Translations under genes and position numbers: made by a program
Origin: an uncultured delta proteobacterium
Lineage (GTDB): Bacteria; Desulfobacterota; Binatia; UBA9968
Length of the DNA stretch: 64,000 bases
NCBI GenBank assembly: GCA_963760795.1
Contig: CAVXEP010000006.1
Span: 68,615 to 132,614, forward strand
Direction: 5' to 3'
Shown here: positions 23,433-64,000 of the stretch, one piece after another
Position numbering within the stretch: position 1 is the first letter of the stretch
How the letters are laid out: each line of letters begins with the position of its first letter
Notes under the pieces: generated by a model
Database searches by the model: none
The model's input: only the letters and a program-made list of their open reading frames with translations
Told to the model about the DNA's origin: nothing

Positions 23433-24992
23433 TCAATGGAGCAGCTGTTTTTGCCGCAAAAACTCGCGCGCCACATCCTTCGCCTGTCGCTTCTCGCCAT
23501 CCACCGCGTTGTTCAGCTTACGCATCTCATCGACAGTGAGAATGCCGCCGAGCTGTTTCAGCACCTCGCGCAGCGCTGGATATTTCTCCAAAGCCGACTG
23601 GCGCACTACCGGCACCGCGTCGTAGGGCGGAAAATAATGCCGATCGTCTTCGAGTTGAAACAAGCCGTAGCGACTGATCAAACCGTCGGTGGAGTTGCCA
23701 GCGATGAGATCCACCTGATTCTCCGCCAGCGCCCGGTAGGTCAGCGATAAATCCATCTCGCGGGTGGCCTCGAAGTGGAGTCCGTAGGCCTTGGAAAAAC
23801 CCGGATAGCCATCGGCGCGCGACATAAAGTCTTGGCCGAAACCGGCACGCCACTGCGACGAAATCTTCGCCGCGTCGCTGACCGTTTTCAGACCAAGCTT
23901 CTTGGCGTCGTCGCCGCGAACGAGAATGGCAAAAGTATTGTTAAAGCCAAGCGGTTCGCTCCATTCGAGGTTAAAGCGCGTGGCGTACGCCGATTTCACG
24001 CGGCGCAAAACTTCCTGCGGATCGGCCATGGGCTTTTCTTTTAAGATCGCCAAGAGCCCTGTGCCGGTATATTCGACGTAAATGTCGATCTCGCCGCCGA
24101 TGAGCGCCTCATGGGCGAGATTGCCGCCCAGGTCGAAACGACGAACCACTTGTAGGCCAGTTTTAGCCTCGATCGCTTGGGCGACGATCTCGCCGAGAAT
24201 GACTTGCTCGGTGAAATCTTTGGAACCGACGGCGATGCGGCCGCCGGTATTACTGTTGAAAAAGTACACCCCGCCGAGCACCGCCAAAACGACCAGAGCA
24301 CTAGCCCACAGCAGGCTCTTCGACTTGCCGCGCACCGCCGCACCGAGTTGAATGGTTTTTTCGAAATAGCCAAGCAGTAAATCGGCGGCGATGGCGATCA
24401 GCGCCGCCGGCACCGCGCCGGCCAGGATGAGCACGTTGTCGTTGGCGCGCAAACCGCGAAAGATATAGCGGCCCAAGCCTCCGGCATCGATGGCCGCGGC
24501 GATGGTCGCGGTGCCGACGCAAATCACCGTGGCGACGCGCACGCCGGCGATGATCACGCCCAACGCCAACGGCAACTCGACTTGCAACAGCAACTGGCGG
24601 TCGGTCATACCCATGCCGCGGCCGGCGTCGCGAATCGCCGGGTCGACATTACTGATACCGGTAAAAGTATTGCGGATGATCGGCAGGAGTGAGTAGAGCA
24701 CCAAGGCGACGATCGCTGTGCGCGCGCCGATGCCACCGACGATTTTAACCTGGAATAAATAAATATTCAGCGGGATGAGAAAACCAAACAGCGCCAGACT
24801 GGGCACAGTCTGCATGATGTTGGCGAAGCCTAAGATCGGCTTGCTCAGTGCCGGCCGGCGCGTCAGCAAGATGCCTAGCGGCACGCCGATCAGGACGGCG
24901 ATGCCGGTGGAAACAACGACGAGAAAGAGGTGCTCCAAGACCAGTTCGCCGAGCTCGCCGCGATTGTGGGTGAAGAATTCTAATAGTGTCAC
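23433..24992 (-). CDS. Quaternary-amine ABC transporter, fused permease + substrate-binding protein (OpuBC/EgtU-like)
   Basis: QTVPSLAL, EAA-like DAGRGMGM loop, VGSKDFTEQ, YVEYTGT, FPPYDA. Confidence 0.9.
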   Translation of the reverse strand: MTLLEFFTHNRGELGELVLEHLFLVVVSTGIAVLIGVPLGILLTRRPALSKPILGFANIMQTVPSLALFGFLIPLNIYLFQVKIVGGIGARTAIVALVLYSLLPIIRNTFTGISNVDPAIRDAGRGMGMTDRQLLLQVELPLALGVIIAGVRVATVICVGTATIAAAIDAGGLGRYIFRGLRANDNVLILAGAVPAALIAIAADLLLGYFEKTIQLGAAVRGKSKSLLWASALVVLAVLGGVYFFNSNTGGRIAVGSKDFTEQVILGEIVAQAIEAKTGLQVVRRFDLGGNLAHEALIGGEIDIYVEYTGTGLLAILKEKPMADPQEVLRRVKSAYATRFNLEWSEPLGFNNTFAILVRGDDAKKLGLKTVSDAAKISSQWRAGFGQDFMSRADGYPGFSKAYGLHFEATREMDLSLTYRALAENQVDLIAGNSTDGLISRYGLFQLEDDRHYFPPYDAVPVVRQSALEKYPALREVLKQLGGILTVDEMRKLNNAVDGEKRQAKDVAREFLRQKQLLH

Positions 24993-25756
24993 GCCGGTCT
25001 CCTGATTGCCTGGCCGTCGTGAAAGCAGGCGGCGAAGGCGCGCGCCTCCGGATGAGACGATTCGAGCAATTCGGCGGGCGCGCCGAGCAAGACCATCTCG
25101 CCGTCCTTGAGCAGCCCGATGCGGCTGCCGAGGACAAACGCCTCGGCGATATCGTGGGTGACGAACACCATGGTCTTGCCCAGGTTTTGCTGCAAGGCTT
25201 TGAACTCCTCTTGAATACCGCGCCGGGTGATCGGATCGAGGGCGCCGAAGGGCTCGTCCAAGAGAATCACCGGCGGATCGGCGGCCAGCGCGCGTGCGAC
25301 ACCGACCCGCTGGCGCTGGCCGCCGGAAAGCTCACGCGGCATGCTCCCGGCAAAGCGCTCGGCGTCGAGGCCGACCAGATTCAACAGCTCATAGGCTCGT
25401 TGGTGAATGCGTTCCGGCTGCCAACCCTCCAGCCGCGGCACCACGCCAATGTTTTGTTCGATAGTCAGGTGCGGGAACAAGCCGATCTCCTGGATCACAT
25501 AGCCAATGCGCCGGCGCAGTTGGATCGGATCCCAGTCCACCGTCGGCTTGCCATCGATGATTACTTGTCCGGCGGTCGGGTCGATTAAGCGGTTGATCAG
25601 TTTCATCGTCGTGGTCTTGCCTGAGCCGCTGCGGCCAAGCAGCACCAAGGTCTCGCCCCGGCCGACCTGCAAATTAAGATGGGCCAACAGGGTCTTGCCG
25701 CCCGGCAAAACGAAGCTGACATCGCGAAATTCAATGGCGGATTCTGTATTACTCAT
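24989..25756 (-). CDS. Quaternary-amine ABC transporter ATP-binding subunit (OpuBA/ProV/EgtU ATPase-like)
   Basis: GRSGSGKT, LSGGQRQRVG, LLDEPFGALDP, VTHD; no CBS domains. Confidence 0.92.
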   Translation of the reverse strand: MSNTESAIEFRDVSFVLPGGKTLLAHLNLQVGRGETLVLLGRSGSGKTTTMKLINRLIDPTAGQVIIDGKPTVDWDPIQLRRRIGYVIQEIGLFPHLTIEQNIGVVPRLEGWQPERIHQRAYELLNLVGLDAERFAGSMPRELSGGQRQRVGVARALAADPPVILLDEPFGALDPITRRGIQEEFKALQQNLGKTMVFVTHDIAEAFVLGSRIGLLKDGEMVLLGAPAELLESSHPEARAFAACFHDGQAIRRPA

Positions 25757-25811: not shown

Positions 25812-26846
25812 ATGGAACAGCAAACCTTACCGATTATTTTCAGCGCCGATGAAACATCACGCTGGTCCTCCGAACACGCGGGAATCTGGTCGCTGCGCGG
25901 CGCCGATTTCGACTCGGTGCCGACAATGTCGATTTTGACCACGCTGTGGGACCACCCGCGTTGGCTCGAGGCATATCACCTCTACGACGCCCAAGGCTCG
26001 GAACTCTTCGAAGATATCTGCGAACTGCCGGAATACTATCTCACCCGCACCGAGAATAGCATTCTCGAAGTTCAGGCAAAAAACATCATCGCCGCCGCAC
26101 CGGTCAAGTGCATCGTCGAGCTCGGCGCCGGTTACAGCAAAAAAACCGTCCACCTGCTCACCGAACAGTTGCGCCAGCGCGGCAGCTGTCAGTTCGCGCC
26201 CATCGATGTCAGCATCGCCGGACTGCTCGCCTCCCAAGCGGCGGTGCGCCGCGATTTCCCGCAAATCCAGTTCCACGGCATCCACTCGCGCTACGAAGAA
26301 GGCTTCTCCGCCGTCGACAAGAATCTGCCGACGCTTTTCGTGTTTCTCGGCAGCACTATCGGCAACTTCAATCAGACCGAGTTCCCGCGTTTCTTCCGCG
26401 CCCTCGCGGACAACATGGGAGCCAACGATTATTTGCTCCTGGGCGCCGACCGGGTCAAAGACAAAAATATTCTAGAACCCGCCTACAACGACAGCCGCGG
26501 CATCACAGCGGCATTTATTTTGAACGTGTTCGGCAACATCAACCGACTGCTCGGCGCTAACTTCGATCGCGCCAAAATGCGCTATCACTCATGGTTCAAT
26601 CCCGAGTGGCAGCAGATCGAGATGTACGCGGTGGCCAATGAATCCCATTCCATCAGCATCCCCAGCGCCAACGCAGCGTTTACCTGGAATAAGAATGAAC
26701 GCATCCTGGTCGAAATCAGCCGCAAGTTCGAACCCAACCGCTTGCAGGAACAATTGGGCTTCCTCGGCTTACAGCCGGTCGCCCACTACACCGATCCGAA
26801 GGAATGGTTTTCAGTTTTCTTGTTGCGCAAACAAGCTCACAGATAG
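25812..26846 (+). CDS. egtD: L-histidine N-alpha-trimethyltransferase (hercynine synthase)
   Basis: YDAQGSELFEDICELPEYYLTRTE, ELGAG, FLGSTIGNF, AYNDSRGITAAF, EISRKF. Confidence 0.88.
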   Translation: MEQQTLPIIFSADETSRWSSEHAGIWSLRGADFDSVPTMSILTTLWDHPRWLEAYHLYDAQGSELFEDICELPEYYLTRTENSILEVQAKNIIAAAPVKCIVELGAGYSKKTVHLLTEQLRQRGSCQFAPIDVSIAGLLASQAAVRRDFPQIQFHGIHSRYEEGFSAVDKNLPTLFVFLGSTIGNFNQTEFPRFFRALADNMGANDYLLLGADRVKDKNILEPAYNDSRGITAAFILNVFGNINRLLGANFDRAKMRYHSWFNPEWQQIEMYAVANESHSISIPSANAAFTWNKNERILVEISRKFEPNRLQEQLGFLGLQPVAHYTDPKEWFSVFLLRKQAHR

Positions 26847-28483: not shown

Positions 28484-29290
28484 CTAGCGAGCACAACGAA
28501 AGCTGATGTTGTGATGGCCCCCGCGCGGATTGCGCGAAACCTGCCGGCCGCGGTGGGTCGTGGTCAATTCGTCGGCGCCAACGTCATGTCCGCCGCCGCG
28601 AGTGCCGCGCACTCTATCCTTGCTCAAGTCTTCCCTACCGTCTTTAGAATTGTAGGGATAGGGCTGATAGGCGCTGTTCACCCACTCCCAACCGTTTCCT
28701 GCCGCATCGAGAAGTCCGTAAGGACTCGCGCCTTTGGGAAAGCTGCCGACCGGCTTGAGATCGTTCCAACCGCCACCGAAATGCGCGCGCGTGCGATCAG
28801 GAGGTTCATTTCCCCAGGGATACTTTCTTGCGTCGGTGCCGCGCGCAGCTTTCTCCCACTCCGCTTCCGTCGGCAAGCGCTTGCCAGTCCATCGGCAATA
28901 GGCAACGGCGCCGTACCAAGACGCTTCGACCACCGGATTATTCTCGAAACCCGTATCCGCCGACCACTGACCGTCACGCCGATGCACCCGCGCGTCGTTG
29001 TCGTCGATGTCAAAATATTTTTCGCCCTGCGGACCGACCGGTCCAATGGCGTTCAAGAATAAGGCAAACTGGGTATTCGTCACCTTAGTGCGATCGATAG
29101 AAAATTCCGCCACCTCGACGCGATGCTGCGGCCGTTCATCGTCGGGGCCGTCATTGCTGCCCATCAAGAACGCCGCCGCGGGAATTCGAATCATCTCGCT
29201 GCTCTCTCTGGACTGAGCGAACACTGCCATGACAGTCGCCAGAATAGTGGCTACGGCTGGACCAAAAAACATTATGAATCGCGGCTTCAT
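28484..29290 (-). CDS. Exported FGE-sulfatase (SUMF1/EgtB C-terminal-like) domain protein
   Basis: Signal peptide; FLMGS, RLPTEAEWEKAARG, GNGWEW, FRCA; lacks the catalytic Cys pair of true FGE. Confidence 0.85.
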   Translation of the reverse strand: MKPRFIMFFGPAVATILATVMAVFAQSRESSEMIRIPAAAFLMGSNDGPDDERPQHRVEVAEFSIDRTKVTNTQFALFLNAIGPVGPQGEKYFDIDDNDARVHRRDGQWSADTGFENNPVVEASWYGAVAYCRWTGKRLPTEAEWEKAARGTDARKYPWGNEPPDRTRAHFGGGWNDLKPVGSFPKGASPYGLLDAAGNGWEWVNSAYQPYPYNSKDGREDLSKDRVRGTRGGGHDVGADELTTTHRGRQVSRNPRGGHHNISFRCAR

Positions 29291-33010: not shown

Positions 33011-33543
33011 AGACCCGAACGTCAAGCAGTTCATTGTGGTGGATAACGCTGCTTTTGGGAGTCTGGCTCTCCGGCTGCTCGTCCATGAATGGAGGCCGGC
33101 CAGTGCCCGCGGTTGCCGTGGTGGAACATCGGACCGACCCCTTCGAGCGAAGCAAAGCGCTATTCTCTCAGGGACAGTATGAAGCCGCCATCAATGAGAA
33201 CCAAAAAATTCTTCAAGACCGCAGCGGTTCCCCCGACCTGGCGCTTTTCAACATGGGAATGATCTCGGCCCATTCGACCAATCCCAAAAAAAACTTTCCC
33301 CGCGCTCTTTCGACCTTTCGGACGCTCGTCAAAGATTATCCTCAGAGTCCGTTAGTTGAGCCCGCCAAGACTTGGATTACTGTCCTTGAGGAACATCAAA
33401 AAATCGCAGAGGAGAAGCGAAGCTTGAGTAAAGAACGGGAAGCTTTGGTACAGGAAAAGGACAAGCTCAAGTACACCATCGAAAAATCACGGCAGGTCGA
33501 TATTGAAATCGAAAAACGGCGGCGGGGGACGCTGCAAAAATAA
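33007..33543 (+). CDS. TPR/coiled-coil lipoprotein (QseG/YfhG-like)
   Basis: Lipobox LSGC, TPR-like LVKDYPQSP, C-terminal coiled coil ending VDIEIEKRRR; ATGA overlap with upstream gene. Confidence 0.7.
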   Translation: MKTRTSSSSLWWITLLLGVWLSGCSSMNGGRPVPAVAVVEHRTDPFERSKALFSQGQYEAAINENQKILQDRSGSPDLALFNMGMISAHSTNPKKNFPRALSTFRTLVKDYPQSPLVEPAKTWITVLEEHQKIAEEKRSLSKEREALVQEKDKLKYTIEKSRQVDIEIEKRRRGTLQK

Positions 33544-33965
33544 TCACGACTCGACTGTGCTCGGCGGCTAAGGCGGTTGATTAGAATAAATCCCGCCGGC
33601 TTCATGCCACCAACCACCTAAGCCTCGCGGTATCCCACTCGTCTAACGCAATCGGGTGACTGTTTTGGCCATCTCGGGATAACGCCAATCTTTTTCCTCT
33701 AGCGATGCTATGCGAGATTGGGTTGCAAGGAGTAAGGCCAAATTTTTTGCTATGGTCGACAGCGCACCGGCGGCGACAAATTGAATTCGGCGCGGGGGAT
33801 GAATACCTATCGCAGCAGAAGCAAAACCGCGATTGACACCTTGCGGGTGTTTCCTGTACAGATTTCTATAACTTAAACGACGCGGCCATGTAGCAGATAC
33901 GCTCGCCCCATGGCCACGCCCAGGCGGATTAGAATCATATTCCAAGTTAGTAGGGAGATAATGAC

Positions 33966-34823
33966 ATGGCAGCCAATCCGGAAGACAAATTCGTTAGCGT
34001 CGATGGACTGAAACTTCGCTATATCGAAGCAGGTACAGGACCCGCTGTGCTGTTTCTGCACGGCGCGTCGCTCGGGAGTTCGGCGGACGTGTTTCTGCGC
34101 AATCTCGACCCTTTTGCCAAATCCGGATTTCGCGCCGTCGCCTTCGACTATCCCGGTTTTGGCCTTTCCGACATTCCCGTCAAGCAAAGCACGGCGCAGC
34201 AACGCAATTCCATTCCGAAATTCATCGATGCCGCGGGGCTGGGCAAGACCGCGCTGATGGCGCATTCACGCTCGGGCGGCTTCGCGATTCAGCTGGCATT
34301 GGAAGATCCCAGCCGCTATTCGCACGTCGTCATTCTTGGCACCGGCTCGCTGCTGCCGCTGCAGACCGAAGCGCAGGTCGGCAGGTACGAAGCGGTACAG
34401 GCGCGGGTCGACAAGGAGATGGCGGAAAAGGAACCGACGCTGGAGGATGCCCGCAAACTCCTGCAGGCGGACACCTTCAACCATGCGCTGATCTCCGATG
34501 AAGACGTCGCCCTACGCCACCGCAGCATGATCGGCCGCAATTTCAAAGCACACCAGGACCGCCAGAGTCACGAGGCCCCCGCGGCCCCCGCCGGGGCCTC
34601 GGCGCCGGCCAAACCGTTATGGGAGAGACTCGCCGACCTGAAGCTGCCGCTATTGATGATGTTTGGCCGCGAAGACCGCGCCCACGCCGGTGAACGCGCC
34701 GAATTGCTGAAAAAACAGCAACCACGGCTCAATCTCCATATTGTCAATGGCTGCAAGCACATGGTGCATTGGGATGCCTTCGACGACCTGATGCGCCTGG
34801 GCGTGCCGTTTTTGAAGAGCTAG
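33966..34823 (+). CDS. Alpha/beta fold hydrolase
   Basis: FLHG, DYPGFGLS, nucleophile elbow AHSRSG, C-terminal HMVHWD. Confidence 0.88.
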   Translation: MAANPEDKFVSVDGLKLRYIEAGTGPAVLFLHGASLGSSADVFLRNLDPFAKSGFRAVAFDYPGFGLSDIPVKQSTAQQRNSIPKFIDAAGLGKTALMAHSRSGGFAIQLALEDPSRYSHVVILGTGSLLPLQTEAQVGRYEAVQARVDKEMAEKEPTLEDARKLLQADTFNHALISDEDVALRHRSMIGRNFKAHQDRQSHEAPAAPAGASAPAKPLWERLADLKLPLLMMFGREDRAHAGERAELLKKQQPRLNLHIVNGCKHMVHWDAFDDLMRLGVPFLKS

Positions 34824-34996
34824 CGAGGCGCCTGGGAGAACCACAGGAGATCAGGGTGAGGTCGTTTCTTTTCATGTGAGTCTTGGACAGCAGGTCTCGC
34901 TGGTCTCGGACCAAATCGCTAAATCATTCCGCGCCTCACGCCGATGAGCAACCGCAGTCATGCTCCTCCAGCATTGCTGTGCGAAATTAGCGCGGC

Positions 34997-36139
34997 ATGA
35001 GACCCGCCAAAACTTTTCACCGCCGCGGCATTGTCGAAGGCTTCTTCGGTCCGCTGTGGTCGATGGCGCACCGGCGCCGGCTGTTCGCATTCGGCGCGCA
35101 GCGCGGCATGAATACTTATCTCTATGCACCGAAGGACGATCCCTATCACCGCCAACTTTGGCGACGGCCTTACCCAGCGGCGCAATGGCGTGAGCTACTG
35201 CGGCTGATTAGAGCTGCGCAAAGAACTCGAATTGACTTCGTCTACGGTTTTCACCCCGGCGCGGGATTGTACTTTAGCGACGATCGCGCCGTTGGCATTC
35301 TGCTGCGCAAAGCGCGGCGCTTCTACGACGCTGGGGTACGCACCTTCGCCGTCCTGTTCGACGATATCCCGTCGCGCCTGAGCGATCCACGCGACCGGCG
35401 CGCATTCAAGAACAGTCTGGCGCGCGCCGAAGCGACTTGGATGGCAAAAATCATCGCCGCCCAGCCGGCGAGCTGGAGCGCTGTCGAGTGGTGGATTTGT
35501 CCTTCTTACTACAGCGAAGATGTTCTGCTCGAACGGGTCTTCGGCCAATTCGAACCGGAGTTTCTCGAAACCTTGGCGCAATATCTGCCGCCAAACATCC
35601 CCTGTTTCTGGACCGGGCCGTCAGTGGTTTCAAAAAGCATCACACTCACCCACGTGTGGCGCATCGCCAAGAAGATTAAGCGACCCCTGCTGCTGTGGGA
35701 CAACTATCCGGTCAACGACCTGTCCATGCGCGACGAACTGCATCTCGCACCGCTGCAAGGACGCGATCCGGGCTTGCCGAAGCATGTCTATGGCTATCTT
35801 AACAATCCATTGCTCCAGGAAGAGTTGAGCTATATGCCGTTGGCAACATGCTTCGACTATGCGCGGGCGCCGGCCAAGTACCGAGCGGAATCGTCCTGGA
35901 CGAAAATCGTTCGCCAACGTTTCGGCGCCGAGGCGTTAAGCCATTGGCGCGCGCTCAGGAGCTATGCTGAAGCAAGCATCGCCGCTGAAAAGGATAAGCG
36001 TCCGCTACAACTCACGATAGCCGAGACGCGCCGCCTGCAGGCCGCATGCAAGTACGTCGAACGAAATCGCCGTCGGTCCTGGGCAAAAGAAATAGCGCCG
36101 TGGCGCGCGGCCATCTTGAAACGGATTGGCGATTTGTGA
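34997..36139 (+). CDS. GH84 O-GlcNAcase-like beta-N-acetylglucosaminidase (stand-alone catalytic domain, no signal peptide)
   Basis: RGIVEGFFG, YAPKDDPYHR, catalytic FDDI, WTG, WDNYPVND. Confidence 0.88.
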   Translation: MRPAKTFHRRGIVEGFFGPLWSMAHRRRLFAFGAQRGMNTYLYAPKDDPYHRQLWRRPYPAAQWRELLRLIRAAQRTRIDFVYGFHPGAGLYFSDDRAVGILLRKARRFYDAGVRTFAVLFDDIPSRLSDPRDRRAFKNSLARAEATWMAKIIAAQPASWSAVEWWICPSYYSEDVLLERVFGQFEPEFLETLAQYLPPNIPCFWTGPSVVSKSITLTHVWRIAKKIKRPLLLWDNYPVNDLSMRDELHLAPLQGRDPGLPKHVYGYLNNPLLQEELSYMPLATCFDYARAPAKYRAESSWTKIVRQRFGAEALSHWRALRSYAEASIAAEKDKRPLQLTIAETRRLQAACKYVERNRRRSWAKEIAPWRAAILKRIGDL

Positions 36140-36201
36140 TGCGCGGCGATATGCGTTAGATCACTGAAAGAAACTCCCCGTTCAACCTCGACACTGCCCA
36201 A

Positions 36202-37632
36202 ATGCCAATGACGATCGCCAGCGCAACCTTCGGCCCCCTCGCCACAATGGGGGCGCGCCAATTGATCGCAACCATGAGCGAGTTCCGCGACCGCTTGCTC
36301 AGCCTGGTCGTCGATCTCGACGATCGGCAGATGATCGGTCCGCGCTTGGCGATCGTCAATCCGCCGCTCTGGGAAATCGGCCATGTCGCCTGGACTCAAG
36401 AGTTTTGGGCGCTGCGACACCTGCGCGGTGAAAAACCGCTCTTGGCGGGCAGCGACCGGCTCTACAATTCCACCGATGTCGCCCATGACACGCGCTGGGA
36501 ACTGTTGCTGCCAAACCGCGCCGACACATTGGCCTACATGAGCGAAGTGCTCGAACGCTGCATCGCCGGCATCGACGCCAAGTCCGAACTATCGGCCGAC
36601 GAGTTTTACTTTTACTGGTTAGCGACATTTCACGAAGGCATGCATGCCGAGGCGCTCGCCTACACGCGCCAAACTCTAGGCTATCCGCCACCGTCGTTTC
36701 TCCAACCCGCTACTTTGGGCGGGACTCGGAACCCGCGCGCTTGGCCCGGCGATGTCGAGATTCCCGACGGCAAGTTCACTATCGGCGCGACCAAGGACAT
36801 ACCGTTTGTTTTCGACAATGAGAAGTGGGCTCACGAGGTCGAGGTGAAATCCTTCCGCATTGCCCGCGCGCCTGTGACCAACGGCGAGTTTTTGCAATTC
36901 GTCGAAGCAGGCGGTTACCGCGAGCGCCAGCACTGGAGCGATGAGGGCTGGCAATGGCTTGAATCCGGCGGCGCGCCGCAGTTGGAGAAATCGTTTGCCA
37001 AGTTCTTCAACACTAACATTACTGAGCCGATGGAAATTGCCGCCTTCAAAGAAAAACTCGATCACCCAGTTTACTGGCAGCAACTCGACAACGGCCGCTG
37101 GCAGCAACGCATCTACGACCGCTATGTCCTGTTGAACGAAGACCTGCCAGTGGTGCATGTGAGTTGGTTCGAAGCCGAAGCCTTCTGCAATTGGGCCGGT
37201 CGGCGCCTGCCCACGGAAGCGGAATGGGAAGTGGCAGCCGCTGGCGAACCCACGGCGAATGGCATCGTGCTGGCGCCGCGGCGCCGCCATTACCCTTGGG
37301 GCGATAATCGCCCCGAACCGCAACACGCCAATCTCGACTGGCACGGCGGCGGTCTCGTCGAAGTTGCCATGCATGAAGCCGGTGACAGCGCCTTCGGTTG
37401 CCGCCAAATGATCGGCAATGTCTGGGAGTGGACCGCGGATAATTTTCTGCCTTATCCAGGATTTAGCGTGGATCCTTACAAGGAATACTCGCAGCCCTGG
37501 TTTGCCACGCATAAAGTCCTGCGCGGCGGCTGCTGGGCAACCTCGTCGCTGCTGATCCACAATGGCTGGCGCAACTTTTACACTCCAGACCGGCGCGATG
37601 TTTGGGCCGGCTTCCGCACCTGTGCGAAGTAA
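36202..37632 (+). CDS. senA: Selenoneine synthase (non-heme iron, EgtB-like)
   Basis: DinB domain NPPLWEIGHVAW and HEGMHAEA iron ligands; FGE-like domain FVFDNEKWAH, RNFYTPDRRDVWAGFR; adjacent to senB. Confidence 0.85.
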   Translation: MPMTIASATFGPLATMGARQLIATMSEFRDRLLSLVVDLDDRQMIGPRLAIVNPPLWEIGHVAWTQEFWALRHLRGEKPLLAGSDRLYNSTDVAHDTRWELLLPNRADTLAYMSEVLERCIAGIDAKSELSADEFYFYWLATFHEGMHAEALAYTRQTLGYPPPSFLQPATLGGTRNPRAWPGDVEIPDGKFTIGATKDIPFVFDNEKWAHEVEVKSFRIARAPVTNGEFLQFVEAGGYRERQHWSDEGWQWLESGGAPQLEKSFAKFFNTNITEPMEIAAFKEKLDHPVYWQQLDNGRWQQRIYDRYVLLNEDLPVVHVSWFEAEAFCNWAGRRLPTEAEWEVAAAGEPTANGIVLAPRRRHYPWGDNRPEPQHANLDWHGGGLVEVAMHEAGDSAFGCRQMIGNVWEWTADNFLPYPGFSVDPYKEYSQPWFATHKVLRGGCWATSSLLIHNGWRNFYTPDRRDVWAGFRTCAK

Positions 37633-37640
37633 AGTGGTTT

Positions 37641-38591
37641 GTGAAAATCCAACTGGTGACCCCCGCGCCGCTGAAGGTCAACAACGGCAACAAGATCACC
37701 GCGCTGCGCTGGGCGACCATACTGAAAAAACTCGGCCACCGCGTTCAGGTGCGCCAGGCCTACGACGGCCAGTCCTGCGATCTCCTGATCGCCTTGCACG
37801 CCCTGCGTAGCGCCGACTCGATCCAGCGGTTTCATGAGGCTCACCCGGACGATCCGCTGATCGTCGTGCTTACCGGCACAGACGTTTACCGCGACATCCA
37901 TGAGAATAAAAAAGCTCAACGATCACTTGAGCTGGCAACGCGGCTGGTAGCCCTGCAAAGCATGGCCGTAGGCGAGCTACCGAAAAAATTTCACGGAAAA
38001 ACTCAAGTTATCTATCAGTCAGCGCAAGCGGTCCGGGCAAAATTTAGAAATCGCAACCATATCTTTAATGTTTGCGTTATCAGCCATCTGCGCGATGAAA
38101 AGGATCCGTTGCGCGCCGCCATCGCCGTGCGCAACCTACCGCAGCAGTCGCGGATCGTAGTCACCCATGTCGGTCAATCTCTAGATCGACGAATTGCCAG
38201 AAGTGCCAAGGCGGAAGTTAAACGAAATCCCCGCTATCGCTGGATCGGCCAACTCTCCCATCGCCAAACCCGCCAGCTCCTCGCTCAGAGTAAACTGGTC
38301 GCCATCACATCGAAGATGGAAGGCAGCTCCAACGTGCTTTCCGAGGCCCTCGCCTCCGATGTGCCCGTCGTCGCGACGAAAATTTCCGGTTTGATGGGAA
38401 CGCTAGGAAAGCGCTTTATCGGCTACTATCCAACCGGCGACACGGATAAACTCCAACGGCTGCTTCTCAGAGCGGAGAGCGACGACAAGTTTTACCGTGA
38501 GCTTAAACGGCAATGCCGCGGCTTTGCTCCTCTCGTGCAACCCGGACGGGAACGGAGCGCCTGGCGGCGCCTGCTTCAGGAAATTGCTTGA
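37641..38591 (+). CDS. senB: Selenosugar synthase (Se-glycosyltransferase, GT-B)
   Basis: GNKITALRW, ALHALRS, LTGTDVYRD, HLRDEKDP, EGSSNVLSE (EX7E). Confidence 0.87.
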   Translation: MKIQLVTPAPLKVNNGNKITALRWATILKKLGHRVQVRQAYDGQSCDLLIALHALRSADSIQRFHEAHPDDPLIVVLTGTDVYRDIHENKKAQRSLELATRLVALQSMAVGELPKKFHGKTQVIYQSAQAVRAKFRNRNHIFNVCVISHLRDEKDPLRAAIAVRNLPQQSRIVVTHVGQSLDRRIARSAKAEVKRNPRYRWIGQLSHRQTRQLLAQSKLVAITSKMEGSSNVLSEALASDVPVVATKISGLMGTLGKRFIGYYPTGDTDKLQRLLLRAESDDKFYRELKRQCRGFAPLVQPGRERSAWRRLLQEIA

Positions 38592-38597
38592 GTAAAT

Positions 38598-39851
38598 TCA
38601 TTCGCGCCGTTCGTCATGAATCCAGCCTTTCACCCACGGTAACAGCAAATACGCCGGCATCGACAGCAAGAAAGTGATCGCGAAGTAGTTGGCGAAGCCG
38701 TACTTCTCCGCCCCCAGTCCGCTAATCGCGCCGATCAAACGCCCGGTGAGGGAAAAGACCGACGAGAGAAATGCGTACTGCACGGTCGCGTGCTCCTTCT
38801 GGCAGACGTTCATCAAGAACGCCAGAAACGCGGCGGTGCCAAGGCCGCCGGAAAGCGACTCGAACATCGAGGCGCCATAGAGACCGAAGCGGCCGAGGTC
38901 CAGCCACTCGACCAACGAATAACCGAGATTGGACACCGCCTGTAACAGACCGAGAAACCACACGCCGTGAAAGATGCCGTAGCGCGAGATGAACGCCCCG
39001 CCCATCAACGCGCCGACGACGCTGAGCACGATGCCAAACGTGGTCGGAAACATGCCGATCTGAAACATCAGCTGTTCCTGCACCGGCCAGATCGTCCTGC
39101 CGTAGTCTACCCAAAACGGTTTCACCATCGGCCCGATGGCGAACTCGCCCAACTTGTAAGTCAGGACGAATAAGATCAGCGGGATCACCTTCCAGGTGCC
39201 GGCCCAACCGGCAAAGCCGGCAAGCCAGTGCTCGCGCGCTGCTGCGGGCAAACTCAATTGCGGCACCGCCAACACGGCAAACGCCAGCGCGGCAAAGACC
39301 ACTCCGGCCAAAACGAAAAGTGCATTCCATGCCAACACGCCGGCAAGAAATACCGAACCGCCGCCGACGAAAACCAAGGCAACCCGATAGGCCGAAGCGC
39401 GCACACCGTTGGCCGCGCCCTCTTCGGCGCGATCGACCAAACCGACGGAGTAGGAATCGATGGCGACATCCTGGGTCGCCGATAAAGTCGTCAGCGCCAA
39501 GATCAACACGAGGACGATCACGCCAACAGCGGCGACGTTCACGAACGGTAGCGCGAACAGCACCGCCGCGATGCCGAGCATGCAAGCCAGTATCCACAAG
39601 CGCCGATCGCCGAATCGATGCACCAGCGGCGACCAAAACACTTTCAGTGAATATGGAAGCTCCAGCAACCGCAGTCCGCCGATGGCGCGCAGCGACACGC
39701 CGTTGATACGAAAATAAACCGGCAGGACTTCCCACAAGATCGCCGCCGGCGCGCCTTGAATGAAATAGAGCAAGGCGATGACGCCGAGCTTGCGTCGACT
39801 TGCCGGCGTGCTATCACCGACACCCAAACATTTCCACATCCACGCTGGCAT
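38598..39851 (-). CDS. AmpG-like MFS permease
   Basis: LYFIQG, LKVFWSPLV, SATQDVAID, ATVQYAFLSS. Confidence 0.85.
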   Translation of the reverse strand: MPAWMWKCLGVGDSTPASRRKLGVIALLYFIQGAPAAILWEVLPVYFRINGVSLRAIGGLRLLELPYSLKVFWSPLVHRFGDRRLWILACMLGIAAVLFALPFVNVAAVGVIVLVLILALTTLSATQDVAIDSYSVGLVDRAEEGAANGVRASAYRVALVFVGGGSVFLAGVLAWNALFVLAGVVFAALAFAVLAVPQLSLPAAAREHWLAGFAGWAGTWKVIPLILFVLTYKLGEFAIGPMVKPFWVDYGRTIWPVQEQLMFQIGMFPTTFGIVLSVVGALMGGAFISRYGIFHGVWFLGLLQAVSNLGYSLVEWLDLGRFGLYGASMFESLSGGLGTAAFLAFLMNVCQKEHATVQYAFLSSVFSLTGRLIGAISGLGAEKYGFANYFAITFLLSMPAYLLLPWVKGWIHDERRE

Positions 39852-40009
39852 ATTCGCATTGTTATAGAGACAAACCGCGAAACTTGCTAGCTCATTGTCA
39901 TCGACTCTTCGCTCCAGCGTTATCGCACAGGCAAATCGCGCCGATAATTATCGCGCGAACGCAAGACAAGATTTTCAGAGAAGGAATGATATCAATATCG
40001 ACCACAGAC

Positions 40010-40678
40010 TCACGGCCTATTTGGTTGTCCAGACGCAAGCCAGCGCGCAAACAGCGCTGCCGCCACGGCGCCAACGATCTGCGCCGCAATAAAATTTATC
40101 ACGCTCTGCGGCGCGATCCCGGCGAAGGTATCGCTCATGGCTCGCGCAATGGTTACCGCGGGGTTTGCGAAGGAAGTCGAAGAGGTAAACCAGTAGGCGC
40201 TACCTATGTAAGCGGCCACCGTCGCCGGCACGGCCTGCGCGCGAAATCGCGACGTCAACAAAATCACCAACACCAATCCGAAGGTCGCAACGATCTCACC
40301 GAAACCTTCACCCAACGATGAGCGCACATGGGTAGAGACTTGGACGATATTCAAACCAAACATCGCATGGGCCGCGGCGACCCCGGCAAGTGCGCCGCCG
40401 ACTTGGGCCAGCGAATAGCTCAACCCCTGTCGCGCCGGCATTTGTCCACAACAAACGCTCACCCAGGAAACCACCGGATTAAAATGCGCGCCGGAAATCG
40501 GTCCAAAGATGACGATCAGGACATACAGGCCGGCGCCCGTGGCAATCGCATTCGCCAACAACGCCACCGCCAGATTTCCCTGGGCGAGCTTTTCCCCCAT
40601 GATTCCCGAACCAACCACGATCGCCAACAGCATGGCTGTTCCAATGACTTCCGCGACCACAGATCGAGACAGCATCAT
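40010..40678 (-). CDS. MIP/aquaporin family channel (arsenic-operon type)
   Basis: GAHFNPV and SFANPAVT motifs; last gene of ars operon. Confidence 0.9.
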   Translation of the reverse strand: MMLSRSVVAEVIGTAMLLAIVVGSGIMGEKLAQGNLAVALLANAIATGAGLYVLIVIFGPISGAHFNPVVSWVSVCCGQMPARQGLSYSLAQVGGALAGVAAAHAMFGLNIVQVSTHVRSSLGEGFGEIVATFGLVLVILLTSRFRAQAVPATVAAYIGSAYWFTSSTSFANPAVTIARAMSDTFAGIAPQSVINFIAAQIVGAVAAALFARWLASGQPNRP

Positions 40679-41172
40679 TGCATTCGGCCAAGCTCGTCGA
40701 GTTTTTCTTTGAGAGCGAGCTTGTTAAGCGTATCGAACGGCAAGTTGACGAACAGCGAAATACGCCGGTAAAGCTCCGTATACGCCCGAAGAAATGCTTT
40801 CCGCTTGTCGTCATCGCTGCCCTGAACCGCCGCCGGGTCATGCACCCCCCAATGCGCCGTCATCGGTTGACCCGGCCAGACCGGGCATGCTTCCGCAGCC
40901 GCCTGATCACACACCGTAAAGACAAAATGCATGAACGGCGCGCCCGGTTGGGAGAATTCGTTCCAATCCTTGCTGCGCAGACCTTCGGTCGGCAGATGAT
41001 TCTTTGCTAGCAGTTCCAATGTTAGTGGATTGACACTACCGGCCGGACGGCTCCCCGCGCTAAAGGCTTTGAATTTGGTTTTCCCGATGGAGGTCAGGAT
41101 GGCCTCCGCCAAGATGCTGCGCGCCGAGTTGCCGGTACAGAGAAATAGAACATTGAGAATTTCCTGTTTCAT
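40675..41172 (-). CDS. arsC: Arsenate reductase (thioredoxin-coupled, LMW-PTP fold)
   Basis: CTGNSARS, TVCDQAAAEACP, HWGVHDP. Confidence 0.92.
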   Translation of the reverse strand: MKQEILNVLFLCTGNSARSILAEAILTSIGKTKFKAFSAGSRPAGSVNPLTLELLAKNHLPTEGLRSKDWNEFSQPGAPFMHFVFTVCDQAAAEACPVWPGQPMTAHWGVHDPAAVQGSDDDKRKAFLRAYTELYRRISLFVNLPFDTLNKLALKEKLDELGRMQ

Positions 41173-41183
41173 AAAAATCTCCC

Positions 41184-41361
41184 TTACGCGCAGCACACAC
41201 TGGTTTTTCTAGCCGTGGAATCAGCGATCGGCGCGGTTTCGCAGCAGGCGCCCGTCTGCGCGCGCGACCTGTCGCCGAAAACGGGAATGGTATCGAGGAA
41301 AGTAAAAACGAATGCTGGCATCGAGATTATCGACGGACACGTGCACATGAAAACGTTTCAT
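41184..41361 (-). pseudogene. Internally deleted ArsI/CadI-family VOC lyase
   Basis: N-terminus MKRFHVHVSVDNLDASIRFY joined out of frame to C-terminus LDTIPVFG...ACC...VCCA*; central core missing. Confidence 0.8.
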
Positions 41362-55924: not shown

Positions 55925-56644
55925 ATGGGAAATGGCGCATACAAGATTCTCGTCGTCGAAGACGAGCCCGATATCCGCAAGCTGGTGCACTACAACCTGG
56001 CTCAGGATCATTACAAAGTTATCGAAGCTGAAAGCGGCGACCAAGCGCTTAAACTTATTCATCGCGATAAACCAAGCCTGGTCATTCTCGACCTGATGAT
56101 GCCGGGAATGTCAGGCTTAGAGGTTTGTAGAGTACTCCGTGGCCAAGACGAAACCGCCAAACTACCGATTCTAATGCTGACCGCCAAGGCGGGTGAAGCG
56201 GATCGCGTTCTTGGGCTGGAATTAGGCGCGGATGATTATCTGGCTAAACCCTTCAGTCCGCGTGAACTGGTCGCCCGCGTGCGCGCAATCCTACGCCGTG
56301 CCAATGGCGCCGGCCGAACGGAAACCCTCCCGGCTTATCAAAAGGGCGGTTTGAAAATCGATTTTGCCACCTACGAAGTATCGGTGCGCGGCAAACCGAT
56401 CAAACTGACGCTCAAGGAGTTCGAGCTTTTAAAATTTCTCGTCGAGAATCCCAGCCGAGTGCTCAACCGCGATCAACTCCTCGATCGCGTCTGGGGCGGC
56501 GAAACCTTCGTCACCCCGCGCACCGTCGACGTGCATATTCGCCGCTTGCGCAAGGCGATCGAAAAGGACGATAGTAATCCCACATGGATTTTGACTCTGC
56601 GCGGAGTCGGCTACAAGTTCGATGAAAAGGCTCTGGAATCTTAG
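55925..56644 (+). CDS. phoB: OmpR-family response regulator PhoB
   Basis: [24 protein letters not shown]; position in pst operon. Confidence 0.92.
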
Positions 56645-58839
56645 TCTCGTTGCTAAAGTATTTTATTCTTACCTTGCGGTCGCTCTGCTGTTGGTCCTGG
56701 GGTTCTATGTTTCCGCCAGCGACCTGATTCGCAGCTTTTATGTCGCCACGCTGAGCAGTCGGATGGACCAAGAAGCCCATCTGCTCGGCCAAGTGTTGCC
56801 ATTTGGCGTGGAAAGCGACGAGCTTGACGCCCTCTGCCGCCAATTCGCCGGCGAACTGGGCTCGCGCATCACCGTGATCGCCCTCGACGGTAAAGTCTTA
56901 GGCGACTCCGCCGAGCCTTCGGCTAAAATGGAAAACCATCGTAGCCGGCCAGAGGTGATCGAAGCGGTAAAATCCGTGACCGGCAGCGCTCAACGCTACA
57001 GCAACACGGTCGGCTTCGACATGCTCTACCGGGCATTTCATCAGCGCGGCGAAAATCAGCAGCGGATCGTCCGTCTCGCCATTCCACTAAAGGACCTCAA
57101 TGGCGTCATCCACGCCATGCGCCGCTCGCTAATCGCGGGATTACTCATGGCTTCGGTAGCCGGACTCTTACTTGCTTGGTGGTTTGCAAAATACCTGGGC
57201 GAGCGCTTGGAACGGCTTGTACACTTCTCTGGCAAGATCGCCCAAGGAAGCTTCCCGCAAGACTTCTTTCCCGGTCACGAGGGAGACGAGATCGGCCTAC
57301 TCGAGCGACACCTGAACGATATGAGCCGGCAAATTCGCGACAATCTTGTCGAAATCACCGGCGAAAAAGAAAAGGCAGATTCGATCTTGCGCTGCATGAT
57401 TGAGGGGGTAGTGGTACTCGATCCAAAGGGTAATGTACTAGTCATCAACGACCAAGCCAAAGCCATGTTTCAATTGCCAGCTGGGCGTGATGTCCACGGC
57501 GCCTCGGTCCTAGAACTCTCCCGCCATCCCGACATCCGGGCGATTTTGAATGAAGTCGTGAAGTTCGATTTTACTAGCCAAAGGTACAGCAAAGAGATCG
57601 AATTCGCGGATGGCATCTGGTTCAGCGTCAACGCAGCGCCGCTACGAAATGCTCAACGTATGACCTTGGGCTCGATACTGGTCTTCCACGAAGTCACCGA
57701 GCTGAAGAGGCTCGAAACCATTCGCTCCGACTTTGTCGCCAACGTTTCGCACGAATTGCGAACACCGCTGACGGCGATCCAAGGCTACATTGAAACGTTA
57801 ATCCATTCTCCACCCAGCAAAGCCGAGGATCGCCAACAGTTCCTCGAAATCATCGAGCGCCACGCCGAAAGACTCGGCCGGTTGACCGAGGATCTCCTGA
57901 CCCTGTCAGATCTCGAGTCGGGCAAGATCCAGATCGCGCCGCGGCCGGTGGATACCTCCCGACTGGTGCAGCAAACACTCGAAGTCTTTTGGAACCGGGC
58001 AGCCAAGAAGAAAATCAAACTCAGCCAAGAAATATCCGCTACATGCGGTAAAATCAGCGGCGACCCGGATCGTTTACAGCAGCTGCTCATCAACCTCGTC
58101 GACAATGCCGTCAAATATACGCCGTCGGGCGGCACCGTGACCCTGAGCGCCGCCGAATGCGAATCGGAAGACGGGGAGCGACAAATCGAAATCTCAGTCG
58201 CGGACAGCGGTGTGGGCATCCCGGAAAAAGATTTACCGCGACTGACAGAGCGCTTCTACCGTGTCGATAAGGCGAGATCACGGGATCTCGGTGGCACAGG
58301 CCTCGGCCTGGCAATCGTCAAACATATCGTTCAGGTTCATCGCGGCGAACTGAGAATCACCAGCGAGCTGAACAAAGGCACGACGATTAGCGTGCGTCTG
58401 CCAATCGCCGAGAACGGTACTGCTGCTAATGCTGGTATTTTATTTCTGTGTACAGGTAATTCTTGCCGCAGCCAGATGGCCGAGGGCTTCGCCCGCCAGT
58501 TGGTTCGCAACGGAGAGAAAATTTATAGCGCGGGAACCAGTCCAAAGGGCGTTCACCCATTGGCGATCCGCGTCATGCAGGAAGTTGGCATCGACATATC
58601 CCAGCCAGGACTCGAAGGGACTCGACGAGATTCCCTTGCAGCAAATAGGTCACCTAATTACTCTGTGCGGCGACGCCGCCGATAGCTGCGCGTCCCTGCG
58701 GGGTGGATTCACGCGCACACATTGGCCGTTGTCCGACCCTGCCGCGGCAGCCGGTACGGAAACAGAAGTCTTGCCCCTATTCCGCACCGTTCGCGATCAA
58801 ATCCAAGACCGGGTCGCCGCTCTCTTCTCCCAGCCATAA
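56622..58839 (+). CDS. phoR: PhoR sensor kinase fused to C-terminal ArsC/LMW-PTP domain (one frameshift near 58602)
   Basis: ENHRSRPEV periplasmic motif, [30 protein letters not shown]; then in frame [17 protein letters not shown]; shifted frame gives [11 protein letters not shown]...HWPLSDP...VRDQI. Confidence 0.88.
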
Positions 58840-59880: not shown

Positions 59881-60879
59881 ACGTCGGCGCGCCGGCGGTC
59901 GGACTCGCCCTCGCGGGCTTCGGCCGGCCGCGATCCGGTCCCGCTTGCGGGCGCTCGCGGTCCGCACCGGGCTTCTTCGACCATCCGGTCGGCTACAAGG
60001 CCCACGGCGCGCGACCCCCTACCTCGGCGGCTTGCGGTGGTGGCGGTTCGGTGCGCCGTGGTCCTGATCGGCGACTTCGCTCGCGGTTCGACCAGCCATT
60101 GGCGTGCGTCTCGCGCCTCCATCGTGGTCGGCACGGTCGACGACCGGGTCAACCTGCCGGTCGCTGCCGGCGTCGCGGTCCAGGTCGGCTGCCGCGATCG
60201 CCCTCTGGACGCGGACCTCGGCTGGGAGCTGTTCGCCAGCGACGCGCTCAACCTCGCGCTCACGGTCCTCTGGGTCGTCGGCCTCGTCAACGCCTTCAAC
60301 CTGATGGACAACCTGGACGGCGCCGCGGGATCGTGTCGCCGCCGCGAGCCCGATCGGGATCGCGTTCTCGCCCTGGTCCACGGCGACCCGCGATCGCCGC
60401 GCTCGCCATCGCGCTCGCCGCCGCGTGCGCCGGCTTCCTGCCGTTCAACCTCGCGCAGCCCTCGCGGATCTTCCTCGGCGACGGGGGCAGCATGCCGATC
60501 GGCCTGCTGGTCGCGGCGCTGATCATGGCTGCGCGTCGTGGGGATGGGCGAGCGCTACCCGCCTTCGCGCCCCTCGCCGGCCTCGCGATCCTCGACACGG
60601 CCCTGGTCGTCGTTTCCCGCGCCGTCGCGGGGCGCCGATGCTGAGCGGCGCCCGCGACCACCTCACCCATCGACTGCTGACCGGCTCGACGCCCAGCGCT
60701 GGTGGCGGCCCGCTGCGATCGGCCAGCGCTGCTCTGGCGCTGCGCGCTCCTCGTCGCTCGCCGAAGCCGGGCGGATCGCGGTCTTCAACGTCGGCGCCCT
60801 CGGCGCCTTCGTCGCGCTCGGCACCATCCTGGCGCTCGGGGCTCGTGCCGAGAGCGCCCGCGCGGAGCGCTCGGGCTGA
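59874..60879 (+). CDS. WecA/TagO/MraY-like polyprenyl-phosphate HexNAc-1-P transferase, multiply frameshifted
   Basis: TPYLGG, NAFNLMDNLDG, IFLGDGGS, RDHLTHRL. Confidence 0.75.
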
Positions 60880-62045
60880 GCCGGATCCGGGTTCTGCGGG
60901 TGATCGCCCGCCTCAACCTCGGCGGACCGGCGCATCAGGCCGCCCTGCTCAGCGGCCGCCGGATGGATCCCGATCGCTTCGAGACCCTGCTCGTCCACGG
61001 TCGCCTCGCGCCGGGCGAGGAGTCGATGGCGGAGCTCGCCGAGCAGGAGGGCGCGCGGATGATCTACCTGCCGACGCTGGGCCAGCCGATCTCGCCACCG
61101 CGCGACGCTCGCGCCCTTGCCGGGCTGCCGGCACGATGGGCGTTTCCGTCCGGACATCGTTCACACCCACACCGCGAAGGCCGGCTTCCTGGGCGCGCGG
61201 CGGCCCGGCTGCGCCCGGCTCCGGCCGGGATCGTCCACACCTTCCACGGCCACGTGCTCGAGGGCTACTTCGGCGCCCGCCAAGACCCGTCTGTTCGCGA
61301 GCTCGAGCGCGGCGCTCGCCCGTCGCACCGACCGCCTGATCGGGGTCAGCCAGGCAACGGTCGACGATCTGGTCCGCCTCGGGGTGGCGCCCGCGAGAGC
61401 AGTTCCAGGTGATCCCGCTCGGGCTCGACCTGCGACCAGTTCGCCGAGGCGATGGGCCGGCACGGGCCATCGAGCTGCGCGACGAGCTCGGGCTCGCGGC
61501 CGACGACGTCGTCTTCACGTCTTCGTCGGTCGCATGGTGCCGATCAAGCGCCTCGATCTTCTGCTTCGTGGGCTTCGCTCGCAGCCGCAAGCGGACGAGC
61601 GCGTCGGCTCGTGATCGTCGGCGACGGCGAGATCGCGATCGGGCTCGAGAGCTCGTGGCGTCCGAGCTCGGCGTCCGCGACGCGGTGCACTTCCTCGGCT
61701 ACCGCAGCGACCTCGCCCGGTCTCCGCCGCCGCGGACCTCGCCGTGATCAGCTCCGACAACGAGGGCACGCCCGTGTCGCTGATCGAGGCCGGCCGCGGC
61801 CGGCCTGCCCGCAGTCGCCACCGATGTCGGGGGGGTGGCGGAGACGATCGTCGGCACGGATCGAGGGCTCCTTGTCTCGCCGGGCCAGTGCCGATGCGTT
61901 CGCAGCCGGCCTGATTCGTCTCGCCGACGATCGCCCCGGTTCGCACGGCATGGATGGGCCGCGATGGCCGACACAGGTGCTGGCCCGAAACGGGGCGGAC
62001 CGTCTCGCACGCCGACCGGCGATCGGTGAGATCATCGAGCTCTGA
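60876..62045 (+). CDS. GT4 glycosyltransferase, multiply frameshifted
   Basis: RVIARLNLGGPA, HTHTAKAG, HTFHGHV, SSDNEGTPVSLIEA. Confidence 0.75.
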
Positions 62046-62159
62046 ACGAGGGGAGTTTCGGCGTCGTCGCGCTCGGCGGCGGGGCTCGCAGGACTCGGTG
62101 TCGCGACCTGCCGAGCCGACCCAGTCACCTGCCGTCGGACTCCGTTTCCCGTTTGAGTC

Positions 62160-63646: not shown

Positions 63647-63688
63647 AGAAGCGGGCAGTGTATAGCCCGGCTATCTTCGCGCCCGACA

Positions 63689-64000
63689 ATGCCTGTGCGG
63701 CCCACCAACCCCGTCCACGACGTCTTCGCGACCGCGCTGGTCCTGATCCTCGTCATCGGTGCCGCCGTAGCGCTGCGCTTCCTGCGCCGGACGCGGCCCG
63801 ACCTGCCGCTTGCCTGGCCGCTGGCGGTGGGGCTCGGCATCAGAGTCCTCATCACCGGCCTGTTGGTGTTGGTCGGTCCAAGCCGGGACTTCCGGGGCGG
63901 CGACGAGATCTTCTTCCTCACCCAGGCCGACGCGATCGCCGACACCCCGTTTGCATCCGAGCTCTGGGTCGAGGCGCTGACCGACCAGCTCCACGTCGCG
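63689..64000 (+). CDS. Membrane protein, 3'-truncated (possible polysaccharide polymerase/GT-C)
   Basis: Open frame to window end with two TM helices followed by GGDE. Confidence 0.5.
   Translation, partial: MPVRPTNPVHDVFATALVLILVIGAAVALRFLRRTRPDLPLAWPLAVGLGIRVLITGLLVLVGPSRDFRGGDEIFFLTQADAIADTPFASELWVEALTDQLHVA

Follow-up and report, generated by a model that had tools for sequence, protein, structure and literature searches.

Selenoneine biosynthesis has been described as the work of three enzymes followed by a spontaneous elimination. In the Kayrouz and Seyedsayamdost preprint, UDP-GlcNAc and selenophosphate are turned by SenB into the selenosugar SeGlcNAc, which SenA joins to hercynine to give a hercynyl-SeGlcNAc selenoxide, and the selenoxide either eliminates spontaneously to the selenenic acid or is reduced to a stable selenoether. 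The hercynyl-SeGlcNAc selenoether was observed there in vitro in the presence of dithiothreitol. The fate of the GlcNAc carrier is a loose end of this scheme. The sugar either leaves as 2-acetamidoglucal or stays in the reduced, dead-end selenoether. Here, we describe a 64 kb stretch of DNA (the window) from an uncultured bacterium of the Binatia in which a gene for a glycoside hydrolase of family 84 (GH84) precedes senA and senB. This GH84 is a conserved, intact and lineage-specific addition to a selenoneine cluster with no linked selD, is unreported in the searchable literature, and is probably an accessory hydrolase of the sen pathway in one order of Binatia.

The window resembles the senA/senB/senC cluster of Kayrouz and Seyedsayamdost in having SenA and SenB equivalogs and a nearby egtD. 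It differs in the absence of a linked selD/senC and in the addition of GH84 and, in many relatives, of an alpha/beta hydrolase. The core of the cluster consists of three genes.

34997..36139, + strand: GH84, predicted beta-N-acetylglucosaminidase, 380 aa, ATG start (PF07555, 275.8 bits)
36202..37632, + strand: senA, selenoneine synthase, 476 aa, with DinB_2 and FGE-sulfatase domains (NF041186, 482 bits against a cut-off of 420; PF12867, PF03781)
37641..38591, + strand (open reading frame 37602-38591): senB, selenosugar synthase of the GT4 type (TIGR04348, 402.7 bits against a cut-off of 300)

An earlier note on this DNA had placed the GH84 gene 62 nt upstream of senA, with all three genes on the plus strand and 8 nt between senA and senB. 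Both distances are borne out by the sequence: the TGA stop of GH84 ends at 36139 and the ATG of senA is at 36202, while the TAA of senA occupies 37630-37632 and the in-frame GTG taken as the start of senB is at 37641. The TIGR04348 model begins at residue 16 of the reading frame that opens at 37602. SenA and SenB are thus adjacent and each scores above its own equivalog cut-off.

The note was also right that the window holds neither selD nor senC. No selD was found in the 64 kb by profile search, and tblastn with the genome's own selD found nothing there. The only selD above the cut-off in this genome lies on another contig (G000:C11:1948-2862, minus strand; locus L001; 378.6 bits). It has one in-frame TGA in the glycine-rich catalytic loop (G-U-A-A-K) and is a predicted selenocysteine-type SelD. 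This unlinked selD would supply selenophosphate to SenB. Among 100 related loci (L005-L104), none has selD or senC within 6 kb of GH84, and senC is therefore not a member of the cluster.

That the described pathway includes no glycosidase, as the earlier note stated, agrees with the preprint and with the table of a 2026 survey. The survey examined the 5 kb flanks of all SenA/EgtB-type genes in NCBI, and the 30 co-encoded families above 1% and three rarer families that it lists include no GlcNAcase. Our view of senB loci in other phyla rests on this table, whereas the genome scans described below are centred on the lineage of the window. In open-access texts no link between GH84 and selenoneine was found, and the combination of selenoneine and glucosaminidase returned nothing but one unrelated fungal paper; the published selenoneine article and the supplements of the cited papers could show cluster variants. 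According to the account of the original selenoneine discovery, the mining began from genes that overlap selD, and clusters with an unlinked selD therefore lay outside that search.

Conservation of the GH84-sen arrangement

The arrangement was followed in two overlapping samples. The wider scan took one genome per species and gave 146 relatives of GH84, of which the best 80 were kept, all at least 56% identical. The census covered all 123 genomes of the window's order, which were searched for GH84, SenA and SenB and tallied by hand; its counts include four genomes flagged as unpublished (G647, G665, G631 and G628). Homologues of GH84 at 69-100% identity are plentiful, and the named ones belong to Candidatus Binatia, the label carried by relatives of the host order.

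In the wider scan, SenB is encoded downstream of GH84 and on the same strand in 67 of the 80 loci. A further six have SenA downstream of GH84 and then reach the contig end, which gives 73 of 80 species-level loci in all where GH84 is followed by senA and/or senB on the same strand. Another four have less than 3 kb of sequence downstream. The arrangement can be regarded as beyond chance because it recurs in these 73 related loci. Core gene orders were counted as follows.

GH84-senA-senB: 48 loci
GH84-hydrolase-senA-senB: 13 loci
GH84-senB: 4 loci
GH84 alone: 3 loci

The census gives a similar picture. SenB is present in 109 of the 123 genomes, SenA in 105 and GH84 in 103; 98 genomes have GH84 together with SenB, 11 have SenB but not GH84, five have GH84 but not SenB, and nine have neither. 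In 84 of the 98 genomes with both, the two genes are on one contig and strand, 0.3-4.5 kb apart. Of the remaining 14, three have GH84 next to a SenA fragment where the contig ends, G647 and G641 have the two genes clearly unlinked, and the rest lie at contig breaks. Once G484 is added, in which GH84 is followed by SenA and then by the contig end, 88 of the order's 103 genomes with GH84 have it adjoining senA and/or senB (84 plus four at contig ends). The earlier note had made its proposal depend on conservation of this linkage in relatives, and the linkage proved to be conserved on both counts (88 of 103 genomes and 73 of 80 loci). The joint absence of GH84 and SenB in nine of the 123 genomes was not used as evidence of co-loss, as adjacent genes vanish together from incomplete assemblies and eight of the nine are 60-87% complete.

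Other neighbours in the same loci provide a control. A homologue of the alpha/beta hydrolase is present in 26 of the 80 loci, a formylglycine-generating enzyme (FGE)-like protein in 27 of the 68 loci with at least 2.5 kb of upstream sequence, and an AmpG-like permease follows senB in 32 of the 67 SenB-bearing loci, in one family of three only. A histidine kinase and two small reading frames recur in two to three loci. The GH84-sen link is thus kept far more than the links to other window neighbours, each of which is found in under half of the loci.

On a GH84 tree (FastTree), the core gene order has changed at least ten times and the GH84-sen link has outlasted these changes. The most telling cases are those in which senA has moved away: it lies 1.4 Mb off in G434, 0.8 Mb off in G593, on another contig in G500 and on other contigs in G678, and GH84 still stands directly before senB. 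In these four census genomes, and in loci L062, L067, L070 and L071 of the wider scan (the two sets may overlap), GH84 is 0.1-0.5 kb before senB with no intervening senA. Because GH84 stays by senB where senA sits far away, senB is its closest partner. SenA is nevertheless encoded in the genome in every clean case of GH84 with SenB among the 123 genomes. Where GH84 and senA are neighbours, their spacing in many pairs runs from an overlap of approximately 34 nt to a gap of approximately 340 nt (start codons were set heuristically), which fits with one operon.

Three metatranscriptome studies, with four libraries between them, contain short contigs (150-370 nt) that correspond to parts of GH84, senA, senB and the genes of the hydrolase and the permease. 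Several of these contigs show just 0-4 differences, and one runs across the senA/senB junction (37595-37964). Carry-over of DNA in the libraries is possible.

The GH84 protein and its relatives

The GH84 of the window, the sole GH84 in its genome, matches PF07555 (the GH84 'NAGidase' family) with 275.8 bits against a cut-off of 25, residues 10-314 covering profile positions 1-287 of 295. The protein has no signal peptide and begins straight with the catalytic domain (MRPAKTFHRRGIVEGFFGP...). Its FDDIP motif holds D122 and D123, which align with chain positions 267/268 (a WDDI motif) of Clostridium perfringens NagJ; we take these to be D297/D298, assuming that the deposited chain begins at residue 31. 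Asp298 of NagJ is the catalytic acid. The earlier note had described a signal-less, stand-alone catalytic domain with an intact FDD pair. The lack of a signal and the intact pair stand, and the description as catalytic domain only does not, as the last approximately 70 residues are predicted to form three helices (311-332, 341-356 and 361-379 in the model described below), similar to the helical part of bacterial O-GlcNAcases.

Conservation was assessed for the window and 77 of the 80 loci (n = 78), with L096, L097 and L099 left out because of a truncated or split GH84. Of the 78 sequences, 77 have the Asp pair, the exception being L035 with a deletion at this point, and K46, Y172, W205, W234, N236, D241 and N270 are invariant in all 78. 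The sugar site of human O-GlcNAcase (hOGA) is formed by G67, K98, D174, N280, D285 and N313. By way of the NagJ alignment and residue offsets, G67, K98, N280, D285 and N313 are matched by G15, K46, N236, D241 and N270 of the window protein, which are kept in 77-78 of the 78 sequences; the offsets also fit D174. Three further invariant residues, W165, W166 and C285, are specific to the clade. The clade also has Phe17 at the position where O-GlcNAcases carry a peptide-stacking Tyr (Tyr69 in hOGA). This residue was considered as a sign of lost peptide binding and dropped, since the Y69F variant of hOGA stays active.

An AlphaFold2 (AF2) model made from 11 clade members has a pLDDT of 86.6 and a pTM of 0.87. 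Its top Foldseek matches are all GH84 enzymes (TMq of 0.74-0.84) and it has the (beta/alpha)8 fold. The closest solved relative by sequence is the cytoplasmic O-GlcNAc hydrolase of Thermobaculum terrenum (PDB entry 5diy; E = 3.6e-69 over residues 7-340), which is also the best fold match (TMq of 0.83-0.84). Both proteins lack a signal peptide and carbohydrate-binding modules, and both consist of a TIM barrel and a helical C-terminal part. The window protein is shorter (380 residues versus 474 in the deposited chain) and belongs to a separate clade, marked by the invariant W165, W166 and C285 and by Phe17; it further differs in its setting within a selenoneine cluster and in a genome in which no O-GlcNAc transferase was found. 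NagJ, BT_4395 of Bacteroides and hOGA share with it the catalytic Asp-Asp and the sugar-binding Lys, Asn, Asp and Asn. NagJ and BT_4395 are long, multi-domain proteins, and hOGA acts on proteins. The NCBIfam equivalog NF041654 ('GlcNAcase', BT_4395 type, 732 positions) is matched by the catalytic part alone, with 192.6 bits against a required 1000. Among 120 listed longer homologues (666-2000 aa, all at most 41% identical), extra domains are present and none has a SenA or SenB domain fused to GH84. Taken together, the best explanation of these features is that the gene encodes an active, cytoplasmic, retaining beta-N-acetylglucosaminidase, as predicted from the sequence and the model.

A few relatives have a GH84 frame that is split, bears a stop or lacks the Asp-Asp stretch (G655:C27:11228-12135; G627:C41:263314-264217; G634:C543:799-1587; L097:6001-7109; L035:772-1788). 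Such frames reflect either decay of the gene or errors of assembly, and G651 has a split SenB as well.

Surroundings of the cluster

Four further genes of the window, which the earlier note did not mention, bear on the cluster.

33966..34823, + strand: alpha/beta-fold hydrolase, 173 nt upstream of GH84 (PF00561)
38598..39851, - strand: AmpG-like permease of the major facilitator superfamily, convergent with senB (TIGR00901, 241.7 bits, under the cut-off of 350)
25812..26846, + strand: egtD, histidine N-alpha-methyltransferase, for hercynine supply (TIGR03438, 297.2 bits against a cut-off of 290.9)
28484..29290, - strand: secreted protein of the FGE-sulfatase family, 268 aa (PF03781)

The closest solved relatives of the alpha/beta hydrolase, though distant ones, are the meta-cleavage-product C-C hydrolases HsaD and BphD (E of approximately 1e-26), and the Ser nucleophile motif is present. 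In some relatives its gene lies between GH84 and senA (for example L010, L013 and L014), and a position in the interior of the cluster or on its border makes it a possible further accessory enzyme beside GH84. The AmpG-like permease might move a GlcNAc conjugate, by analogy with AmpG proteins, which carry GlcNAc-containing muropeptides. The FGE-family protein has a signal-like N-terminus but neither a DinB domain nor the Cys pair found in true formylglycine-generating enzymes. In many relatives (for example L016:9445-10260 and L021:6122-6904) its gene is next to GH84 and divergent from it, and in the family with the relocated senA the genes for this protein, GH84 and senB make up a block of three.

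Divergent from egtD is a betaine-type ABC transporter (23433-25756, minus strand) that consists of a fused permease/substrate-binding protein (519 aa, with matches to OsmF and ProW-like proteins) and a ProV-like ATPase. We take its architecture to resemble that of the EgtUV ergothioneine importer, and it might carry hercynine, ergothioneine or selenoneine. Beyond the permease, an MIP channel gene and a low-molecular-weight phosphatase/ArsC-like gene (40010-41196, minus strand) overlap by 4 nt. Both genes are again found past the cluster in L025 and L036, and L033 has the ArsC-like gene without the channel gene; a part in the handling of a metalloid (arsenic or selenium) is possible. A sensor histidine kinase at 56622-58685 (plus strand) has sCache, HAMP, PAS, HisKA and HATPase domains and, in an unusual fusion, a C-terminal low-molecular-weight phosphatase/ArsC-like segment. 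In the final 4 kb of the window (60000-64000, the contig end), the G+C content climbs from approximately 0.55 to 0.71-0.73 and the reading frames are almost without Pfam matches. The stretch may be a foreign island, or the contig may be chimeric at this end. A scan of 33400-40000 for promoters and terminators gave sites no more numerous than in shuffled sequence, and an Rfam search of the window gave no matches.

The role of GH84 in the selenoneine pathway

In the proposal that we prefer, GH84 would be an accessory fourth enzyme beside the products of egtD, senB and senA in a selenoneine pathway with an unlinked selD. Some of the selenoxide formed by SenA would, in the reducing cytoplasm, escape elimination and end up as the stable, reduced selenoether hercynyl-SeGlcNAc. 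GH84 would then hydrolyse the anomeric C-Se bond of this compound by substrate-assisted catalysis, in which D122 would polarise the 2-acetamido group, D123 would serve as acid/base and the reaction would pass through an oxazoline intermediate. Selenoneine, a good leaving group, would be released together with GlcNAc, and the GlcNAc would be recycled. Cleavage of thioglycosides by an O-GlcNAcase is on record, as judged by the title of a paper, although alkyl S-GlcNAc resists hydrolysis. The hercynyl-SeGlcNAc selenoether, giving selenoneine and GlcNAc, is a tentative candidate for the substrate, ahead of the others but with less than an even chance of being correct. It is possible, but rather doubtful, that GH84 is the first natural Se-glycosidase, making the last step of selenoneine formation enzyme-catalysed and redox-neutral in place of a spontaneous selenoxide elimination, in which case it may clear 2-acetamidoglucal as well. 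A parallel to EgtE and EgtC of ergothioneine biosynthesis can be drawn by function only, as a dedicated removal of the carrier after the C-S or C-Se bond has been formed. The folds and chemistry are unrelated, the carrier in the window system being a sugar and the proposed step a glycoside hydrolysis.

Several observations weigh against an accessory role of this kind. The three-enzyme pathway runs in vitro without a glycosidase and the selenoxide elimination is spontaneous, according to the preprint. hOGA does not hydrolyse Cys-S-GlcNAc, which is described as 'nonhydrolyzable', and chalcogen glycosides can thus resist GH84 enzymes. By the title of another paper, N-acetyl glycals are tight-binding hexosaminidase inhibitors, and the by-product 2-acetamidoglucal, a member of this class, might block such a hydrolase. 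Three of the 80 loci (L041, L047 and L061) have at least 6 kb of sequence downstream of GH84 and no sen gene in it; the genomes of L041 (a statement based on G588) and L061 carry SenB elsewhere, and SenB was not found in the genome of L047. No metatranscriptome contig bridges the GH84-senA junction in the four libraries of 150-370 nt contigs. The distances of GH84 and SenB correlate (r = 0.89 over 60 loci; Mantel 0 of 999), and this divergence in step fits one origin followed by co-inheritance and is not independent evidence of function. All linked loci lie in one order and in effect represent a single evolutionary origin, and the support for a role of GH84 is wholly genomic.

The distribution outside the order points in the same direction. 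In a sample of 201 genomes of the class, which includes G570 as one of the class-level GH84 matches, GH84 was on the contig of SenB in none of the eight SenB-bearing genomes outside the order. Clusters elsewhere in the class take the form MATE-senA-senB-egtD, have senB divergent from senA or contain a SenB-EgtD fusion. Since these clusters do without GH84, the enzyme is an accessory one and not a general step of the pathway. The pathway variant suggested in the earlier note therefore survives as a conserved accessory gene of one order and not as a general step. The fusion lies in a genome of another family of the class (L109:6500-8761, minus strand), where a single frame of 753 aa combines SenB (358 bits) with EgtD (359 bits), so that the selenosugar and hercynine steps are naturally fused.

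The strongest alternative keeps GH84 within the pathway and changes its client. In the sister pathway, 2-acetamidoglucal is the released sugar observed with OvsA, and the ovoselenol preprint calls SenA analogous. By this analogy, selenoxide elimination would free 2-acetamidoglucal as a further candidate substrate, beyond the Se-glycosidase idea of the earlier note. GH84 could then be a hydratase for salvage or detoxification that turns the eliminated sugar into GlcNAc: C2 would be protonated, the acetamido oxygen would close the oxazoline that is the normal intermediate of GH84, and water would open this to GlcNAc. The cell would recover the sugar and remove a compound that would inhibit NagZ and other GlcNAc-handling enzymes; NagZ is encoded elsewhere in the genome (269.6 bits against a cut-off of 207) and could be a target of such a glycal. 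N-acetyl glycals are also slow substrates of hexosaminidases. The linkage and conservation apply equally to a hydratase, and the presence of SenA in the genome in every clean case of GH84 with SenB also counts in its favour. On the other hand, known GH84 enzymes are inhibited by such glycals and are not known to turn them over fast, and organisms that make selenoneine but lack GH84 manage in some way. The sequence features that were computed do not tell a hydratase from a hydrolase, nor do they separate the selenoether from 2-acetamidoglucal as the client. We consider the hydratase somewhat unlikely.

Slightly less probable still is an ordinary cytoplasmic GlcNAcase that acts on chito-oligosaccharides, muropeptides or another glycoconjugate, with its place beside the sen genes being inherited synteny and no functional tie. 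The single origin of the linkage and its absence outside the order would suit such an enzyme, as would the cases where GH84 is unlinked from sen genes or occurs without them (L041, L047 and L061; G647, G641 and G685) and the nearby AmpG-like permease in one family, a member of a family that imports GlcNAc-containing muropeptides. However, synteny of this kind accords poorly with a link that is kept far above those to other neighbours and has outlasted at least ten rearrangements, or with the short gaps and overlaps between GH84 and senA, which suit one operon. In addition, the removal of GlcNAc from muropeptides is already covered by NagZ.

It is improbable that GH84 instead acts on the SenB product itself, on the diselenide of this product or on a selenosugar taken up from outside to yield selenide and GlcNAc, for control of the selenosugar level or for selenium salvage. 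The pairing of GH84 with senB is the tightest in the cluster, as seen in the eight cases above without senA between them, and in the window's family the AmpG-family permease, found after senB in 32 of 67 loci, might take up a compound of this kind. However, hydrolysis of SeGlcNAc would set up a futile cycle with SenB that spends UDP-GlcNAc and selenophosphate, the permease is missing from the loci of the other two families, and no clean case of GH84 with SenB and without SenA was found in the 123 genomes, so that nothing ties GH84 to SenB alone.

A protein O-GlcNAcase that takes O-GlcNAc off proteins, as the T. terrenum relative that is its best sequence and fold match would suggest, is very improbable, as no GT41 O-GlcNAc transferase (PF13844) was found in the genome itself (0 of 1, 89% complete) or in five single-contig relatives (0 of 5, 97-99% complete), whereas the control genomes were detected.

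The accessory hydrolase of the sen pathway therefore continues to be the reading we prefer. The retention of a GlcNAc-specific hydrolase by senB throughout an order suggests that the enzyme handles the GlcNAc carrier. If its substrate is the selenoether, it would be the first enzyme known to cut a natural selenium-sugar bond and could raise the yield of selenoneine in engineered producers; if instead it acts on the glucal, it would reveal how cells dispose of what the chemistry of SenA leaves behind. Abundant soil bacteria carry sen clusters in which selD is not linked, and mining centred on selD had missed them. The order described here consists of uncultured soil bacteria, and the presence of GH84 beside their sen genes suggests an undescribed fourth step that handles the sugar by which selenium is carried.

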